Shown: positions 3,001 through 60,550 of the stretch, in pieces
Layout of the letters: each line of letters starts with the position of its first letter
How positions within the stretch are numbered: position 1 is the stretch's first letter
Program-made: the position numbers and the translations under genes
Source of the DNA: a virus
Virus record (IMG/VR): IMGVR_UViG_3300020048_000110
Length of the DNA: 64,000 nt
Direction: 5' to 3' (one strand)
The notes under the pieces: model-generated
Databases searched by the model: none
What the model was told of the DNA's origin: nothing
The model's input: only the letters and a program-made list of their open reading frames with translations

Positions 3001-4925
3001 TCTTAGTTACAGCAATGGAACAAGCAGATCTGACACCTTTCAATTACTATTTCTATAATAATATTGGAGATAACCCAAAGTTTTATGTTAGTTATGAAAT
3101 ATCTAAGGATTTTGAAGCAGACAGTCAATTTTTTCCAGATATTCAGTATAATTATACTTTTGATAATGCGAGAGTTGTAAACTATTTTGGAGTGGATTTT
3201 ACGGCTAGTGGAAAGTATATTTCACCACCTAATAAGTTCTATTTGTATTATTACGGAGTACCAAACTATTTAGTTGAAACACGTATAAATACAAACTTTA
3301 GATACGCAGGTAAAGAGTTAAGAGATAACTTTTTTCCGCAAGTAGGAGATTTATCAAAATGGACACAAGAAAAGAATGTTCCTATAAATGAACCAGAAAC
3401 ATTTAACTATAACAATAGCTATTCAAAACAGACTAGTTTTGTAAGATCTAGAGTTTTCTCAAACACCTACAAAAAGGAAATAAACGATAAGACTCAAAAT
3501 TTACCAAACGGAGTAATCTCTAGTCTTTCAGATTCATCAGAGAATTCTACTATGGATCCTTGGTTAATATATAGGCCATTTGATTTATTTGAGTTCCCAA
3601 CTAACTTTGGAAAACTTAAAGACATTATAGACATTGAGAGCCAAGCAGTTTTAGCCAGATTTGAAAATACTTCTATGCTATATAATAAAGTAGATAGTAA
3701 GATAGATGACGGATCAACACCTACTTCTGCTTTCTTTGGAGGATCATCTTTATGGCAAAGAAGACCTATAACTTTTAACAATACGGATTTAGGTTATGGA
3801 GGTACACAAAACTTTGCAAAGATCTCTTGTGAATATGGACATTTTTGGGTAGATGCAAAAAGAGGACAAGTTCTTACAGTACAACCAAATGGAGGTACAA
3901 TGGAAGAAATATCTTCAGTAATAGGAGGTAAACCTAGCGGAATGAGAAACTGGTTTAAAGAACACTTACCATTCAAAATTCTAAAATACTTACCACATGT
4001 TAATACAGATAACCCATACAACGGAGTAGGTATAACAATGGGATGGGATAGTAGATACAGAAGAGTTTTTATAACTAAAAAAGATTACATTCCAAAGAGT
4101 TGTGTTGACTACGTACAAGGTAAAGGATTTGTATATAAACCTGCAGATTGTGATGGAAGTCCTACAGCGGAGCCAATCGCAATAGAAGCTGGAGATCCTC
4201 AATATTTTGAAGATGTATCATGGACAGTTGCTTACTCTCCAGTAATAGGTTCTTGGTTGAGCTACTACAGTTTCACACCAAACTATTACATAGGGCATAA
4301 CAACTACTTCCAAACAGGAATAAATAGTATAGTAAATACAAATGAGAATGGTCTTTGGTCACACCTCTTAACAAACAAATCTTACCAAGTTTTTTATGGT
4401 AAAAAAGAAGAGTTTATTTTAGAGTATCCAGTACAAGGAGATTATACTGAAAAGTATATAAACAACATAGAACTTTGGACTGAAGCAAAGAGATACCATA
4501 ATGATTACGACTACTACACTAATCCTGGGATTACGTTTAACAAGTCTGTACTCTATAATACAATACATTGCTCAGGAACGCTTAATCTAGTGCCGTTAAA
4601 AACGAACTATATGAGTGCAAAAGACTTCCCTAAAACTAACCTAAATAACACACAGGATATAGGTATAAGAACAGGAGGAACTTTAATCTGGACTTATGAT
4701 TATTTTTATAATAGAGTAAAGAATGGTACTAGTAATATACCATTTTTAATACAAGATTCAAATCAAATTAAGAAATATGTGAACAGTCAGATAGTGAGTT
4801 TTAAAGGCAAACCTCTACTTGAAAGGATGGTAGGAGATTGGTTTTTAAACAGACTTACCTACGATAAAGATAGTAGGTATAGTTTAAGTTTCATATTTTC
4901 TATCACAGATACTTCTAAAATTTAA
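1..4925 (+). CDS. Giant virion, tail or ejected structural protein. The ORF is open to the window edge, so it is 5'-partial and longer than 1640 aa
   Basis: The frame starting at nt 3 has no stop upstream of the ATG at 96. The protein is rich in N, T, Y and S and looks beta-rich, with no recognisable catalytic motif. It is the first of nine consecutive giant + strand ORFs. Confidence 0.6.
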   Translation, partial: KLTFEAPNESLVFCNFFNDTYEDCSENPFEGMVDDNGFPICNTPTIIGTELVVSRVVGEQTTKVEKVFPTEYTRITTQKGCNLYKKDPKTDDFIQDPTNPLGYDPDAPIGSPAKPTPIPVYLRDSDFTNENCSYASDITQIAKVTSNTAIGYFNNYYFEDIAKELLINKTATFVDYVEEITFKDATPGPTSGDLTVTIGVSTFTQTYTTTPTASALAFFTAHKAAIETLTGGVVTISGPKVTITDSTLAYVDSVITTGNLEYEFKTNGGFTKKIHKGALWFNLDFNGKTDLILDIAKQKDSEGDDDISVGSQVRISIFKSCSDSNAIYSKVIDLNSPSIYKIKKASSTSLNLVIEDETTGLTPIVITNGWNLTEKYYIAVDCPLVKTEIDTDPLGVQITGGIPPTYTYNRDFKDVFYTSPTDGCYTITKRAVEIKRIDVTWDSIELVKNIKMQATCTLKQPILQNCKAIAYRKGDFAYWESTETYPDNNELYNSSLLDIKPADLSGLTIEEIAKFESTFTDGIELDGNYKWKESEKIEGDISSLQPVVDYTCRPIRHFKFPDNKIAPYTYNSLQVNFNKSAIFPLGITLNESVILKFLDVAVKNELLSSEDRNKIKSYEIFRGDLNLNRSIVASGILFDMRSYKENEKDVLYTNYPFNSYSDDKFNLDSSNKPLVTPNFGESNYNYTFHSPETDYYKPTIPSELSIQGFLFGNSRGNVEEVLKHPKWVILGDVARSDAGDLATLEVFAEVTIIIANAAIQASHTYETSFFAFVAGAGGAASTTSNIAGATTSGIALGAIAFLEIAESVVYKWGKYRYEWLKIFRDLGTPNNFAYYYHAEGFYNFLRNDIHTEGDSLRGLNITKYIKDARYTTLNEVTPESITINNIDREYSVFLSTGKNNSISYPDYYKKYDSLPNNSSITYLGENGIASSKKSPEIVKPIASPYVHLKNYIPSQHGTINSIKWLSTGFRSNFNNTGCLSIFGGDTYISRHTVKRKKPQFLVTAMEQADLTPFNYYFYNNIGDNPKFYVSYEISKDFEADSQFFPDIQYNYTFDNARVVNYFGVDFTASGKYISPPNKFYLYYYGVPNYLVETRINTNFRYAGKELRDNFFPQVGDLSKWTQEKNVPINEPETFNYNNSYSKQTSFVRSRVFSNTYKKEINDKTQNLPNGVISSLSDSSENSTMDPWLIYRPFDLFEFPTNFGKLKDIIDIESQAVLARFENTSMLYNKVDSKIDDGSTPTSAFFGGSSLWQRRPITFNNTDLGYGGTQNFAKISCEYGHFWVDAKRGQVLTVQPNGGTMEEISSVIGGKPSGMRNWFKEHLPFKILKYLPHVNTDNPYNGVGITMGWDSRYRRVFITKKDYIPKSCVDYVQGKGFVYKPADCDGSPTAEPIAIEAGDPQYFEDVSWTVAYSPVIGSWLSYYSFTPNYYIGHNNYFQTGINSIVNTNENGLWSHLLTNKSYQVFYGKKEEFILEYPVQGDYTEKYINNIELWTEAKRYHNDYDYYTNPGITFNKSVLYNTIHCSGTLNLVPLKTNYMSAKDFPKTNLNNTQDIGIRTGGTLIWTYDYFYNRVKNGTSNIPFLIQDSNQIKKYVNSQIVSFKGKPLLERMVGDWFLNRLTYDKDSRYSLSFIFSITDTSKI

Positions 4926-57727: not shown

Positions 57728-57760
57728 TAAAAAAAGTACCTCCTAATTAAAAGAGGTACT
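57728..57760 (-). terminator. Rho-independent terminator on the - strand upstream of the RNR operon
   Basis: Perfect 8-bp stem agtacctc / gaggtact with a T-run on the - strand. Confidence 0.6.
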
Positions 57761-57793
57761 CTGATCTTAAAGTGCAAAGATATAAAAAATATA

Positions 57794-58105: not shown

Positions 58106-58143
58106 ATCTACACTTTTTATACATCATTTGGCTGATGTTATTG

Positions 58144-58215
58144 TGGTCCCGGAGGATTACGATACCCCGACCTTGTTCTTATGAGGAACCTGCTCTTCCG
58201 CTGAGCTACGAGACC
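58144..58215 (-). tRNA. tRNA-Met (CAU)-like, 72 nt, with a degenerate T-arm
   Basis: The - strand reads GGTCTCG-TA-GCTCAGCGGAAGAGC-A-GGTTC-CTCATAA-GAACA-AGGTC-GGGGTATCGTAATCCTC-CGGGACC-A. The acceptor stem has 7 pairs including one G-U. The D-arm is perfect. The anticodon is CAU. The T-stem has a closing T-T in place of G53-C61. Confidence 0.45.
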
Positions 58216-58527
58216 AAAGTAGGGAGATTTCGCTCTCCCTAGGCGTGGTTAAGCTGCAATCCTTTGCACCCCACCAATGTTAAAAACGTTGCCGTTTGTG
58301 TTTAAAGTATATTCTCCTTATTACCTACTTATTGCCAGTCAAAACCAGTCACCCCCATAAAAGATTGTTTAAAGTACAACCAGTAAAACTTATAAGGTCA
58401 ACTGATAAATCAGTAGACTCCACCAGACTGTTTCTTAATTCAAGCATACAGACAAACAAACGTGGAGGTGCCGAGAGTCGAACTCGGGTGTTGGTCAACT
58501 TCAATAATATATCAACGAACTACTTCG

Positions 58528-58675
58528 TAATCAGGACAGGACTCGAACCTGTAAATAAGAGAGGTCACTTAACACTAATGGGACTCATACCATTACCCTC
58601 TGTATTGCCATACCGTGTTGCGTCTACCACGAGCAGGGACACCCCACTCCTTTCGCCACCTGATTATTTACTTGT
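58528..58675 (-). ncRNA. Oversized tRNA-like element E1, about 148 nt, homologous to E2
   Basis: 5' AATCAGG pairs with 3' CCTGATT. It has the GGTGGCG...GTGGTAGACGC D-arm with an inserted hairpin GGGGTGTCCC. At the 3' end, ACAGG-TTCGAGT-CCTGT forms a T-arm. Confidence 0.4.
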
Positions 58676-59007
58676 CTTTCCAAGTTGTCAATCCGTTTTA
58701 ATCTCTCGGTGGACCTCCCATCAACCTACATACAGATTACAGTTGTAGATATTTTATCTATAATCCTCTGTCTTTCCAGTGTCCACAACTTATGTGTTAG
58801 CCTCACACATCAATCACTAGGTTGTCAGCTTTGCAACCAAGACAGGATTTGAACCTGCAACCCTTTCTGCCTTTCGACAAAATGTTATACCTCTTTAACT
58901 TACTTGATCTCCAGGTACTCTATAAGCTACTACCCTTGGAGCTACGAATCGTATCATTGAATCTATTCTAGACTAGAGACAACAACATCTTATAGAGTTT
59001 TATTTCG

Positions 59008-59123
59008 TGATTGAGACAGGACTCGAACCTGTAATTCATACTGTTAACTATATGGTGTGTTTATACTTCACACTCTGCTTTTACCCTCTTCGGGTGTGTG
59101 TCTAGCCGTTTCACCACTCAATC
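59008..59123 (-). ncRNA. Oversized tRNA-like element E4, about 116 nt
   Basis: Acceptor GATTGAG / CTCAATC (7 bp). D-arm TG-GTG-AAACGGCTAGA-CAC. A 66-nt insert with hairpins ACCCGAAGAGGGT and GTGTGAAGTATAAACACAC. T-arm ACAGG-TTCGAGT-CCTGT. Confidence 0.4.
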
Positions 59124-59217
59124 ATTTCCCCTCGGGTGAGGGCACTCGTCAGTTTCGGTAGCATCCCCTAGACTACTCTAATTAAATCAAAGTAGATGGG
59201 GTCGAACTGTAAATACC

Positions 59218-59499
59218 TTACAAAGGTTTTTTAGAACCTATTTCATATTCACTTGGAGTATTGATCAACTTCAATAAGATGTATATATACTCTGCTTCAC
59301 TATAATCCATTCTATTTTTCTCTGCAAATTTAGTTAGAAGACTTAAACCGTTACCGTCATCCTCTATTTGAAATGCGATCCTATCTCTTATATGACTTGA
59401 CCAACTACTATCATTAGAAAAGTACAGTGTGTGTTTAGTATCATCTACTATTTCATAGTCAAAATCATATCTACCATCTACAAAAATCTGCTGTTTCAT
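59218..59499 (-). CDS. Hypothetical protein inside the tRNA-like cluster. Start set at the internal Met, because the ORF track N-terminus overlaps element E2
   Basis: MKQQIFVDGRYDFDYEIV... The longer ORF would run into the tRNA-like gene. Confidence 0.4.
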   Translation of the reverse strand: MKQQIFVDGRYDFDYEIVDDTKHTLYFSNDSSWSSHIRDRIAFQIEDDGNGLSLLTKFAEKNRMDYSEAEYIYILLKLINTPSEYEIGSKKPL

Positions 59500-59519
59500 T
59501 TTTATCTGTTTTAAATTTG

Positions 59520-59668
59520 TTGTCAGGACAGGATTCGAACCTGCAATTGTGGATTTCCAAGTAAGGACTCGTATGGGCTTTTTCCATTCCACACCCACGA
59601 TGAAACTATCCTTATCTTTTTGCGTCTACCACGTCAGGGAGAAACCCCTAACCTTCCGCCACCTGACT
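59520..59668 (-). ncRNA. Oversized tRNA-like element E2, about 149 nt
   Basis: AGTCAGGTGGCGG-AAGGTTAGGGGTTTCTCCCTGACGTGGTAGA-CGC ... GCAGG-TTCGAAT-CCTGT-CCTGACA. The D-loop carries a GGGG..CCC hairpin as in E1. It is alignable with E1 over its full length. Confidence 0.4.
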
Positions 59669-59675
59669 GTAAAAT

Positions 59676-59894
59676 TTACTTTTTAAAAGAAAACTTTTGC
59701 CCTAAAATCTCCAATCTTTGACCTAAAACTTGCAAATACTCATTCATCAATCTTGATTGTTTGTAAAGTAAATCTTTGTTTTGACGGTCTAAATCAACAA
59801 ATGCTTGAGTACGCATAAAATCGTTTAAGGCATTTGTCTTTATTGCTAATTCCTGTGCTTCAATAAGAAGTCTTTCGTAAAATGATTCTCCCAT
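59676..59894 (-). CDS. Small hypothetical protein, 72 aa, between tRNA-like genes
   Basis: ORF. Confidence 0.4.
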   Translation of the reverse strand: MGESFYERLLIEAQELAIKTNALNDFMRTQAFVDLDRQNKDLLYKQSRLMNEYLQVLGQRLEILGQKFSFKK

Positions 59895-59915
59895 TTTTAT
59901 TTAATTTAAAGTTAG

Positions 59916-60002
59916 TAGTCAGAACAGGATTTGAACCTGTATTGTTGAATTACCCAGCTTCAACTGCATAAGTATAGCGTCTACCAATTCCGCCACCTGA
60001 CT
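59916..60002 (-). tRNA. Class-II-type (Leu-like D-arm) tRNA or tRNA-like gene, 87 nt. I could not fold a canonical anticodon arm
   Basis: AGTCAGG-TG-GCGGAATTGGTAGACGC matches the bacterial tRNA-Leu D-arm, which I recall as GGUGGCGGAAUUGGUAGACGC (not checked here). It has a GTTGAA/TTCAAC hairpin with a 9-nt loop, T-arm ACAGG-TTCAAAT-CCTGT and acceptor 3' strand TCTGACT-A. Confidence 0.5.
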
Positions 60003-60009
60003 ATTTTTC

Positions 60010-60550
60010 GCTAATGTTAAAAACTGATTCAATCCTCCTAAAACACATTAACTTGGTACTTACTCTATATAGGCTCCCCAATCCTTTATATATCTTTACC
60101 TGAAACTTCTTTGGGTTGTTGATTGACCACTCCCACTTACTCAAGTAGTTTTTATTTAGCACCCTTTCTTATAGCTTACCGAGTTATCAGTTACGGAGCT
60201 TGTATAAGAGTAGGGTCACGTAGCTATACTAAATGTAAGGGTCTCTTACTAACTACTTGCTGAGAACTCATTTGTGTTAGTCTTTACTAGTTGTCGCAAC
60301 AACCTTGTAGCCACTCTATTTTCCTTTCTCAAGGGAACAACACATCTACCATTACTGATAGTATCTTTATGTAAAGTAGTCGCTCGAGGGCCTTTACTCC
60401 TATGGAGACTCAAGTGTTATTTTTAAGTTACCGACTTTTTACAAAGGATCAATGTTTAGCCTTTTATTAAAGCATTCTAGCTACATTGGGAGAACTGCCT
60501 TTCCCACGTTATTTAAGAGTATATCTTGCAGCGTATCTCACTAGGTTATG
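60010..60550. ncRNA. Candidate structured non-coding RNA: 540 nt with no ORF over 30 aa on either strand, and more GC-rich than its surroundings
   Basis: No ORF in six frames. It lies next to the tRNA-like cluster and is flanked by - strand genes. Confidence 0.25.

Follow-up and report, generated by a model that had tools for sequence, protein, structure and literature searches.

Oversized tRNA-like elements in a phage tRNA cluster as a probable family of natural tRNA-Leu scaffolds

The 64,000-nt IMG/VR virus record IMGVR_UViG_3300020048_000110 (hereafter, the window) contains a minus-strand cluster of tRNA-like elements, several of which are oversized. The oversized elements are not ordinary tRNAs. 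Considered together with their relatives, they probably constitute a phage-borne family of non-decoding RNAs derived from tRNA-Leu, in which the body of the tRNA serves as a natural scaffold for an inserted center. The family is large and apparently undescribed, and it adds a previously unrecognized class to the structured noncoding RNAs (ncRNAs) of phages, with at least 264 unique oversized members in ∼280 loci.

Elements were located with a strict scan for four features in combination: a 5-bp T-stem, the T-loop GTTCRANTC, six or more of the seven acceptor pairs, and U8-R9. The whole 64-kb window yielded exactly five elements, all on the minus strand at 58528-60002 and so within 1.5 kb, as compared to a mean of 0.02 elements in 100 shuffled windows. 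An initial annotation of this DNA had described a minus-strand cluster of tRNA-like genes with oversized members; all of its signatures are present, with small corrections. From 5′ to 3′ on the minus strand, the five elements are:

E0, 59916-60002, minus strand: 87-nt tRNA-Leu-like element; strict scan, Rfam tRNA match of 37.2 bits
E2, 59520-59668, minus strand: 149-nt tRNA-Leu-like element with a D-loop hairpin; strict scan
E4, 59008-59123, minus strand: 116-nt tRNA-like element; strict scan, Rfam tRNA match of 35.3 bits
E5, 58834-58909, minus strand: 76-nt tRNA-like element; strict scan, Rfam tRNA match of 36.2 bits
E1, 58528-58665, minus strand: 138-nt tRNA-Leu-like element with a D-loop hairpin; strict scan

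Standard tRNA finders miss or mis-call the family, examples being E0 ('tRNA-His') and the Val, Leu, and Gly identities assigned in intron mode (see below). In the flagged region, ARAGORN with default settings reported only tRNA-Met(CAU) (58143-58215) and a 'tRNA-His(atg)' (59915-60002). Rfam at gathering thresholds gave the three weak tRNA matches listed above, in which an unaligned insert of 28 nt (E0), 13 nt (E5), or 56 nt (E4) replaces the anticodon arm. E2 matched neither the Rfam tRNA model nor default ARAGORN, and it is only because of their D-loop insert that E1 and E2 are missed by the Rfam model. The initial annotation had allowed for its hand folding being wrong and for standard predictors folding all elements as ordinary 72-90-nt tRNAs. 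This was not the outcome: in the deduplicated set of unique oversized elements (92-200 nt, from ∼280 sampled loci, a lower bound), ARAGORN called 10 of 264, as compared to 246 of 300 tRNA-sized elements.

A tRNA-Leu-like frame with diverse centers

The frame consists of a 7-bp acceptor stem, U8, a 3-bp D-stem, a Leu-type D-loop (A14, A15, G18G19), U48, a canonical T-arm, and mostly A73. A C follows the discriminator, and CCA is not encoded. The acceptor stem, D-arm, and T-arm, with U8, G18G19, and the T-loop, are those of a canonical tRNA; a 5-bp stem with a 7-nt loop bearing U33 and R37 was not found directly after position 26, and 170 of 256 centers lack a terminal hairpin fit for an anticodon arm. 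True tRNA-Leu, tRNA-Ser, and tRNA-Tyr genes of the family phages form a separate cluster and have normal anticodon arms.

Frame statistics were calculated on a set gathered by the D-arm pattern only, which was chosen to guard against circularity. In this set, pairing amounts to 98.7% in the acceptor stem, of which there are 25 different sequences, and to 100% in the T-stem. U occupies position 48 in 65/65 elements and A the discriminator position in 50/65, and an optional D-loop hairpin of 7-8 bp occurs in 39 versions. Among the unique oversized elements, A73 is present in 213/264. When 44 frames were aligned minus their centers, RNAalifold returned the acceptor stem, the 3-bp D-stem, the D-loop hairpin, and the T-stem, with compensatory changes in 17 of 24 pairs. 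A direct pair count gave 97.9% pairing as compared to 76.1% in shuffled frames and 222 versus 54 compensatory cells, values reached in none of 500 shuffles (0/500); slid partners, used as a control, were 36-45% paired. The frame is under selection for RNA structure.

As compared to canonical class-II tRNA-Leu, the family shares A73, A15-U48, G18G19, the T-loop, and, in E0, a D-arm identical to that of Escherichia coli over 22 nt. It differs in having no anticodon arm, in a center of 33-143 nt versus ∼32 nt, and in the D-loop hairpin of some members. The anticodon and variable arms of tRNA-Leu are dispensable for E. coli LeuRS, whose determinants include A73, A15-U48, G18G19 and A20a in the D-loop, and the D/T-loop elbow (PMC9976931). 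Since A73, A15-U48, G18G19, and the T-loop are kept, and since LeuRS charges tRNA-Leu lacking both of these arms (PMC9976931), leucylation of the elements by LeuRS is plausible. At the sequence level, the A73 and U48 counts given above and the D-loop of E0, identical to that of E. coli tRNA-Leu, bear on leucine identity, but E5 carries G73 and the alpha region of the E1 and E2 D-loops holds a hairpin.

Nucleotides 5-26 of E0, spanning the D-arm, are 100% identical to E. coli tRNA-Leu genes, as the initial annotation had suggested for the D-arm. The D-arm is followed by a 12-nt single-stranded linker, UAUACUUAUGCA, and then by a 6-bp stem with a 9-nt loop, GCUGGGUAA, with no anticodon arm; Rfam fits the element with its 28-nt insert where a 17-nt anticodon arm belongs. 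The same annotation had failed to fold a canonical anticodon stem and had drawn this stem and loop instead. The structure is real: orthologues in loci L050, L090, and L095 have a covarying stem with a conserved loop and linker, and the four versions of this center differ in the stem (GTTGAA/TTCAAC versus AGAGCAA/TTGCTCT) with loop and linker invariant. Because the 6-bp stem with its 9-nt loop covaries in relatives, the 'tRNA-His(atg)' call for E0 is an artefact. The hairpin seems to resemble Cas13b direct repeats, and no claim is made from this likeness.

E1 has an 8-bp hairpin in its D-loop, an acceptor stem (AATCAGG/CCTGATT) paired at 7/7 positions, and a 67-nt pseudoknotted center composed of a GUAU/AUAC hairpin, the helix AGAGG/CCUCU, a UAAUGG/CCAUUA hairpin, and a 3-bp CAC/GUG pseudoknot. 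The perfect acceptor reported earlier holds, but the interval reported with it (58528-58675) was too long because it included 10 leader nucleotides; the element starts at 58665 and measures 138 rather than 148 nt. Nine distinct orthologues of the E1-type center were found on contigs of 8-344 kb. Each of the 33 pairs proposed is kept in 100% of them, and six are compensatory, including one in the pseudoknot helix (A-U to G-C).

E2 likewise has an 8-bp D-loop hairpin, here with a 77-nt center. Its length of 149 nt agrees with the earlier description, but its acceptor is paired at 6/7 positions and not perfectly, the 1-72 pair being A.A; the E2 orthologues have A-U at this position. The center is ∼90% identical in three metagenome orthologues, two with a plain D-loop (L279, L281) and one with a ∼45-nt D-loop insert (L280). 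We propose that it folds into nested helices and a loop-to-3′-tail pseudoknot, UGUGGA:UCCACA. The D-loop hairpin noticed earlier as common to E1 and E2 is real and recurs in 91 IMG/VR contigs, its 39 distinct versions covarying. The two elements had also been described as alignable end to end; this is true of their frames, but their centers are two different conserved types with weak residual similarity, a score reached in 1 of 500 shuffles.

E4 is as described in the initial annotation, 116 nt long with 7/7 acceptor pairs. It has a plain class-II-like D-arm and a 65-nt center of three hairpins, the last of which (CAUAU-AGUUAACA-GUAUG) is followed by AAUU and the T-arm. The center is 94% identical in L201 and L229, where one U.G pair is replaced by C-G. 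A weak Rfam match of E4 to the skipping-rope family (16.7 bits, E 2.5) was dismissed as noise. E5 accounts for the signature at 58834-58940 that had previously been left without a complete gene, and occupies 58834-58909. A hand fold gives it an anticodon arm consisting of a 7-bp stem closed by a GAAA tetraloop, and the minimum free energy (MFE) fold gives a cloverleaf; the discriminator is G. Because this arm is capped by the tetraloop, E5 has no anticodon. ARAGORN had to be run with its threshold lowered before it reported the element, as 'tRNA-?(gaaa)'.

The centers stand in place of the anticodon and variable region and have a median length of 66.5 nt. They are highly diverse, with ∼144 similarity clusters among 188 centers, the types being unrelated. 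Their folding is more stable than that of random segments of the same loci (mean MFE z of -0.81 versus -0.18; Mann-Whitney p ∼1e-8). Every center type that was examined has kept its sequence among phage contigs whose relationship is distant. Helices covary in the E0, E1, and E4 types and in two further types outside the window, 'GACGUAUGG...' (∼10 versions) and 'AAAAAACUG...' (5 versions), where compensatory changes were identified by eye; the E2 type is conserved only. Centers are also found in differing surroundings. The E4 center is joined to a GATTGAG frame and a plain D-loop in the window, and to an AGTCAGG frame and an E1-like D-loop hairpin in L201 and L229; the E1 center goes with a plain D-loop in eight of the nine phages; and the E2 center occurs with three D-loop versions (no insert, 20 nt, and ∼45 nt). 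These combinations indicate that frames, D-loop inserts, and centers recombine as separate modules. The tRNA body can thus tolerate, and evolution can exploit, two sites of expansion, the D-loop and the anticodon/variable region. The idea that centers are guide RNAs was dropped, as a comparison with ∼2 Mb of related phage DNA matched orthologous elements only.

Distribution in uncultivated phages

The 72-aa open reading frame (ORF) between E0 and E2 has 30 relatives in IMG/VR viral contigs at 80-93% amino-acid identity and belongs to phrog_774, annotated as of unknown function. The elements adjoining these relatives have the same ends and entirely different middles. At least 120 viral contigs matched a scan with the 3′ half of the frame, the densest having 7 copies in 5 kb, and a scan for the D-arm with a hairpin insert identified the 91 IMG/VR contigs mentioned above; the family is present in more than 200 IMG/VR contigs, of 4-344 kb. 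Among the loci gathered at this stage, 242 carry 638 T-arm/acceptor elements, 318 of them at least 92 nt long. In 185,579 species genomes, the frame was found in only 25 contigs of metagenome-assembled genomes (MAGs), mostly of Chitinophagia, Flavobacterium, Sediminibacterium, and Saprospirales; none of the isolate genomes carried it. A blastn search of 50,697 GenBank phage records with the 2.4-kb region gave no match, and no GenBank phage covered at least 80% of the 54-nt consensus frame, the hits being generic tRNA-Leu or T-arm pieces. The family phages are uncultivated, represented by IMG/VR contigs and a few Bacteroidota MAG contigs. The window itself looks, from its predicted proteins, like a crAss-like phage of Bacteroidota, with giant plus-strand proteins and a minus-strand replication module that includes a BT4734-type primase, PolA, DnaB, dUTPase, Thy1, ribonucleotide reductase, and an SPFH lipoprotein.

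An Rfam scan of 22 related loci returned ordinary tRNAs at 50-70 bits, oversized elements as weak tRNA matches at 31-45 bits, and transfer-messenger RNAs (tmRNAs), and from this content we conclude that the oversized elements live in phage tRNA/tmRNA clusters. The literature searched contained no description of a tRNA-Leu-framed family of oversized phage RNAs, and a 2023 survey of structured RNAs in IMG/VR reported only a few tRNA-like candidates, which overlapped ARAGORN calls (PMC10690425). The second of two alternatives offered in the initial annotation, a tRNA-derived family of structured RNAs, is supported and considerably enlarged by these data, with hundreds of members, a covarying frame, and partly covarying centers.

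Several related loci have further features. In L201 (250-1700, plus strand), seven tRNA-like elements are packed into 1.4 kb, one of them with a ∼30-nt D-loop insert, and a 28-codon Cys-rich mini-ORF, MKRKDVYVCVCDGSCTSPEDCSPIKSKR, lies between two elements of the array. L051, L083, L150, and L102 contain a distinct conserved subfamily of 156-176 nt with the acceptor UGUCAGG/CCUGACA-G and a long center that includes ...CCCACUCGUCUCGUGGGCGCUGAA...AUAUGGGUUGACCACAAAGCCGGCU...GAAUC.CAGC. L055 has a match to freshwater-1 RNA (RF02979) at 4124-4186 on the plus strand, within its tRNA/tRNA-like cluster, at 70.1 bits as compared to a gathering score of 72. In the cultured crAss-like Cellulophaga phage phi14:2 (NC_021806; locus L270), an unannotated intergenic stretch at 1772-1850 on the plus strand has a T-arm (GAAGG-UUCGAAU-CCUUC), a 7-bp closing stem, and a long hairpin, with no D-arm; this may be a different kind of tRNA-like element.

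Processing, alternative explanations, and known systems

The flanks of the oversized elements resemble those of tRNAs. The nucleotide at -1 is U in 195/264, and the trailer starts with C in 249/264, as CAA or CTA and never as a complete CCA. The -1 and trailer pattern is shared by the ordinary tRNAs that these phages encode, and this agreement argues for the same maturation route. All elements are on one strand in 142 of 145 multi-element loci. An ORF stop is found 0-9 nt upstream of 43/190 elements (23%) as compared to 5/186 random positions (3%), and an ORF start 10-29 nt downstream of 71/200 elements (36%) as compared to 29/213 random positions (14%).

If the elements are natural scaffolds, they would be co-transcribed with ordinary tRNAs, tmRNA, and small ORFs. 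RNase P would cut at +1, 3′ trimming to C74 would be followed by CCA completion, and the same cuts would define the ends of the flanking mRNAs. The released RNAs could then accumulate as stable L-shaped molecules, the frame providing processing, stability, and perhaps leucylation by LeuRS, and the center acting as the working part, a binding or decoy module directed toward host or phage factors. A more ambitious form of this proposal, which we put forward tentatively, is that freshwater Bacteroidota phages maintain a recombining library of more than 140 structured RNA modules on a leucine-tRNA scaffold, with the modules serving as RNA effectors (decoys or aptamers against host defense or physiology) and the scaffold hijacking host tRNA maturation and possibly charging.

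A number of observations weigh against the scaffold proposal. In these phages ORFs are interspersed about equally tightly among the ordinary tRNAs, so punctuation of transcripts does not set the oversized elements apart, and it could be all that they do. Leucylation is uncertain because ∼19% of elements lack A73 and the D-loop hairpin occupies a region relevant to LeuRS. A 6-mer search of the centers revealed no universal motif, with modest enrichment only of CCACAA, GGTTCGA, and TAATGG, and for none of the centers did a sensitive Rfam scan, covering the region and 22 related loci, return a family. Neighboring genes do not point to a recurrent partner protein, the commonest neighbor family being present in only 20 loci. 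The orthologue sets that document conservation of centers are small and highly similar (2-9 sequences for the four types of the window, up to ∼10 elsewhere), and the E2 pseudoknot never varies among its three orthologues, leaving that center with conservation and no informative covariation. The large set was gathered with sequence patterns derived from the frame, and the uniformity of the AGTCAGG frame is overstated as a result. The cultured relative phi14:2, for which RNA-seq is available, has a tmRNA and shares a long ncRNA with the window but has no Leu-type oversized elements.

Two alternatives assign the elements a role that does not involve an active center. One, which we consider unlikely, is that they are purely processing punctuation, the frame being a signal for RNase P and 3′ processing by which polycistronic transcripts are divided into mRNAs, and the centers tolerated filler. 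This would explain the large excess, relative to random positions, of ORF stops adjoining the 5′ ends and of ORF starts 10-29 nt past the 3′ ends, and it fits the tRNA-like -1 and trailer nucleotides, the minimal GAAA-capped arm of E5, and the hyperdiversity of centers (∼144 clusters among 188). Filler, however, would be expected to shrink in compact phage genomes, yet centers reach 143 nt, fold more stably than random locus segments, and belong to types that stay 90-94% identical while flanks and even frames differ; their helices covary, including a pseudoknot helix, and their loops are conserved. Punctuation alone also fails to explain why an oversized class exists, since ordinary tRNAs are interleaved with ORFs in the same manner and already supply it. 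The other is that the elements are acceptor-arm decoys or sponges for Cas12a3, for nucleotidyltransferase or acetyltransferase toxins acting on tRNA 3′ ends, or for LeuRS or EF-Tu, with the inserts keeping them off the ribosome. Here too the chances seem low. Retention of the leucine identity set with loss of the decoding parts would be expected of such decoys, as would the presence of up to 7 copies per contig among small ORFs of unassigned function, which are typical of phage early/accessory regions. A precedent is provided by a phage tmRNA that lacks a coding sequence (CDS) and inhibits host tmRNA (PMC11915505). Cas12a3 of Bacteroidetes is a nuclease that cleaves tRNA tails, and the parts of the tRNA kept in the family, the T-arm, acceptor stem, and CCA tail, are those contacted by Ba1Cas12a3 (PMC12851939). 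A decoy role is conceivable on account of these retained contacts, but a decoy would not need a sequence-conserved, covarying center, and there would be no reason for ∼144 center types, so the conserved and diverse centers are left unexplained.

The remaining alternatives bring the elements closer to ordinary tRNA genes, and each appears very improbable. The first of the two alternatives in the initial annotation was that these are intron-containing or otherwise processed genes, cut and rejoined to give 72-90-nt decoding tRNAs. ARAGORN in intron mode does yield models for E2 (tRNA-Val), E4 (tRNA-Leu), and E1 (tRNA-Gly), and the loop of the last E4 hairpin contains UUAA. These models place introns at 38/39, 31/32, and 33/34, respectively, use the D-loop hairpin as an 'anticodon arm', and thereby break the covarying D-arm and D-loop hairpin. 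No consistent insert position restores a cloverleaf, the sites are non-canonical, the identities are unrelated, most centers lack anticodon-arm halves at their ends, and covariation contradicts the predicted fold of E0, so this explanation was rejected. The centers are too short for group I or group II introns; Rfam gave no intron or ribozyme match at E≤10 in the window region or at E≤0.5 in relatives (no search for bulge-helix-bulge motifs was made), and no ligase or endonuclease domain was found among the 20 window ORFs scanned with Pfam. It is no more credible that some elements are unusual decoders, active in translation despite expanded loops and an insertion between the D-arm and anticodon arm. 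The geometry of an anticodon stem is indeed present in E0 (9-nt loop) and E4 (8-nt loop), where the last hairpin has 5-6 bp and a variable loop of 3-4 nt comes after it, and their loops are conserved. These loops lack the U33/R37 pattern, however, the arm would be out of place with 12-40 nt inserted at the 26/27 junction, and most family members have no such hairpin. Decay is similarly hard to reconcile with the data. Duplicated tRNA-Leu genes that had acquired insertions and lost function would account for the clearly tRNA-Leu-derived frames, for the CUUA(A/U)G remnant in the E0 linker that resembles the anticodon loop of Leu(UAA), and for the low Rfam tRNA scores. Pseudogenes would not be expected to keep 98-100% of frame pairs by compensatory changes over 25 acceptor stems, to retain an invariant U48 and covarying centers and D-loop hairpins, or to spread over more than 200 contigs.

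Among known systems, species 1 RNA of phage T4 (rnaC) is the closest natural analog of the proposed scaffolds, and no membership in the family is claimed for it. It is 139 nt long, lies beside phage tRNA genes, and has a T-arm (CCGGG-UUCGAAU-CCCGG), an acceptor-like stem, and an oversized center. Unlike the family, it has no Leu-type D-arm that we could find, its acceptor forms 5/7 pairs by our reading, and it is a single copy and not modular; blastn of the region against the 50,697 phage records gave no homology to rnaC, the generic T-arm being all that is in common. The nearest architectural analog is man-made. In the engineered tRNA scaffold of Ponchon and Dardel, designed for recombinant RNA expression, a structured RNA replaces the anticodon arm, and the chimera is reportedly processed and protected like a tRNA. 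The architecture is the same, except that the phage elements are built on a class-II Leu frame with an optional D-loop hairpin. tmRNA is similar in joining an acceptor and T-arm domain without an anticodon arm to pseudoknots, and in being recognized by a synthetase that ignores the anticodon. The oversized elements differ from it in lacking G3:U70 (pair 3-70 is U-A or similar), a tag frame, and the P2 architecture, and in having a full Leu-type D-arm; their centers are too short for an ORF, and they match no tmRNA model. With the t-elements of plant mitochondria, mitochondrial punctuation, mascRNA, and the gammaherpesvirus TMERs, the common point is the logic of RNase P/Z cleavage, which the abutment of ORFs fits. 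Those systems are not known to have a conserved internal cargo, and the hairpins of TMERs are located downstream of the tRNA-like part.

As tRNA-like ncRNAs of phage tRNA clusters, the elements belong to a kind that is already known, and there is a real chance that they are more than that if the centers are effectors. Comparisons within the family offer a way into a puzzle that is fifty years old, that of the oversized stable RNAs encoded among phage tRNA genes, T4 species 1 RNA being one. Were the centers effectors, they would represent a new category of RNA-based host manipulation and a source of natural scaffolds for RNA engineering. A library of RNA effectors would be the RNA counterpart of protein anti-defense islands, and tRNA-scaffolded display would then also be a natural invention. 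If the elements are processing signals only, large-scale tRNA punctuation of phage mRNAs would have been documented.

Companion genes and motifs of the cluster

The other features of the cluster are:

72-aa ORF, 59676-59894, minus strand: starts 22 nt past E0 and stops 7 nt before E2
93-aa ORF, 59218-59499, minus strand: between E2 and E4, with its ATG 20 nt past the last base of E2
Leader motif, 58666-58691, minus strand: directly upstream of E1, with a degenerate second copy at 58765-58788 (minus strand)
Permuted tmRNA, acceptor piece, 58463-58520, minus strand: Rfam RF04321
Permuted tmRNA, coding piece, 58249-58356, minus strand: Rfam RF04321 alignment
tRNA-Met(CAU), 58144-58215, minus strand: ARAGORN; Rfam 42.9 bits
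Intrinsic-terminator-like hairpin and T-run, 57733-57762, minus strand: after the next ORF downstream

Read 5′ to 3′ on the minus strand, the cluster runs E0, 72-aa ORF, E2, 93-aa ORF, E4, E5, leader motif, E1, permuted tmRNA, tRNA-Met, an ORF, and the terminator-like hairpin, which is probably the end of its transcription unit. The two interleaved protein genes that had been noticed earlier are the 72-aa and 93-aa ORFs. As a query, the interleaved 93-aa ORF found only four distant loci, and a downstream 93-aa ORF used as a locus query gave no match. The gaps at 59124-59217 and 58910-59007 (minus strand, ∼95 nt each) have no ORF and strong hairpin potential. A hammerhead-like CUGACGAG...GAAA string at ∼59130-59160 was considered and dropped, having no Rfam support and an incomplete stem II when folded by hand.

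The additional T-arm that the initial annotation had placed at 58464-58528 is a real signature, but it belongs to the acceptor piece of a permuted tmRNA. The tmRNA_permuted model (RF04321) aligns over its full length to 58249-58520 (minus strand) with 44.8 bits and E 5.5e-7, 2 bits short of the gathering score of 47. The upstream acceptor piece holds a P2 strand, the T-arm CCGAG-UUCGACU-CUCGG, the acceptor 3′ strand CACCUCC, and discriminator A. The downstream coding piece starts with 5′ GGGGGUG, followed by GACUGGUUUUGAC and the tag frame GNVFNIGGVQRIAA* (58293-58249, stop TAA); the tag is similar to that of the phi14:2 tmRNA, GSSVQKLAMVA*. Across the two pieces, GGGGGUG and CACCUCC form an acceptor with G3:U70, and P2 pairs as in the permuted form. 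The gene order is permuted because no T-arm lies downstream of the coding piece. ARAGORN, including its -m mode, misses the permuted tmRNA of the window. The related phages L001, L051, and phi14:2 have a standard one-piece tmRNA, and L005 and L006 have an orphan tmRNA-type T-arm and acceptor 3′ strand similar to the acceptor piece described here.

The gene described previously as tRNA-Met(CAU)-like with an abnormal T-stem was recovered by both ARAGORN and Rfam, and its T-arm pairs and loop are indeed non-standard, with a UAUCGUAA-like T-loop where UUCGAAU is usual. A bacterial initiator is excluded by G1-C72 and by an anticodon stem without GGG/CCC; the gene may encode either an elongator Met or an Ile2-type tRNA.

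The leader motif upstream of E1 consists of TTGACA, a 5-bp hairpin with the loop GAAAGA, and then 5 nt. It was found in 19 related loci, 4-6 nt upstream of element 5′ ends, in the general form TTGAC(N), a 4-5-bp hairpin, and ∼5 nt. Its stem covaries (GCUUG/CAAGC, GCUCG/CGAGC, UGAUG/CAUCA, GCCGG/UCGGC). Possible roles for the motif are as a signal in the leader or for processing, as a hairpin bound by a protein, or as one element of a phage promoter. A sigma-70 promoter was considered and rejected, as the -10 match is not kept in relatives and transcription would begin inside the element.

Beyond the cluster, at ∼60204-60356 (minus strand), the window contains three blocks conserved with phi14:2 (3119-3290), one of which, AACACAAATGAGTTCTCAGCAAGTAGTTA, is identical at 29/29 positions. 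They match no Rfam family. In phi14:2 the blocks fall in the g004-g005 intergenic region, which RNA-seq identified as a very abundant early 'long non-coding RNA' (bioRxiv 10.1101/2020.03.07.982082), and the reverse complement of the first block is present in L001.

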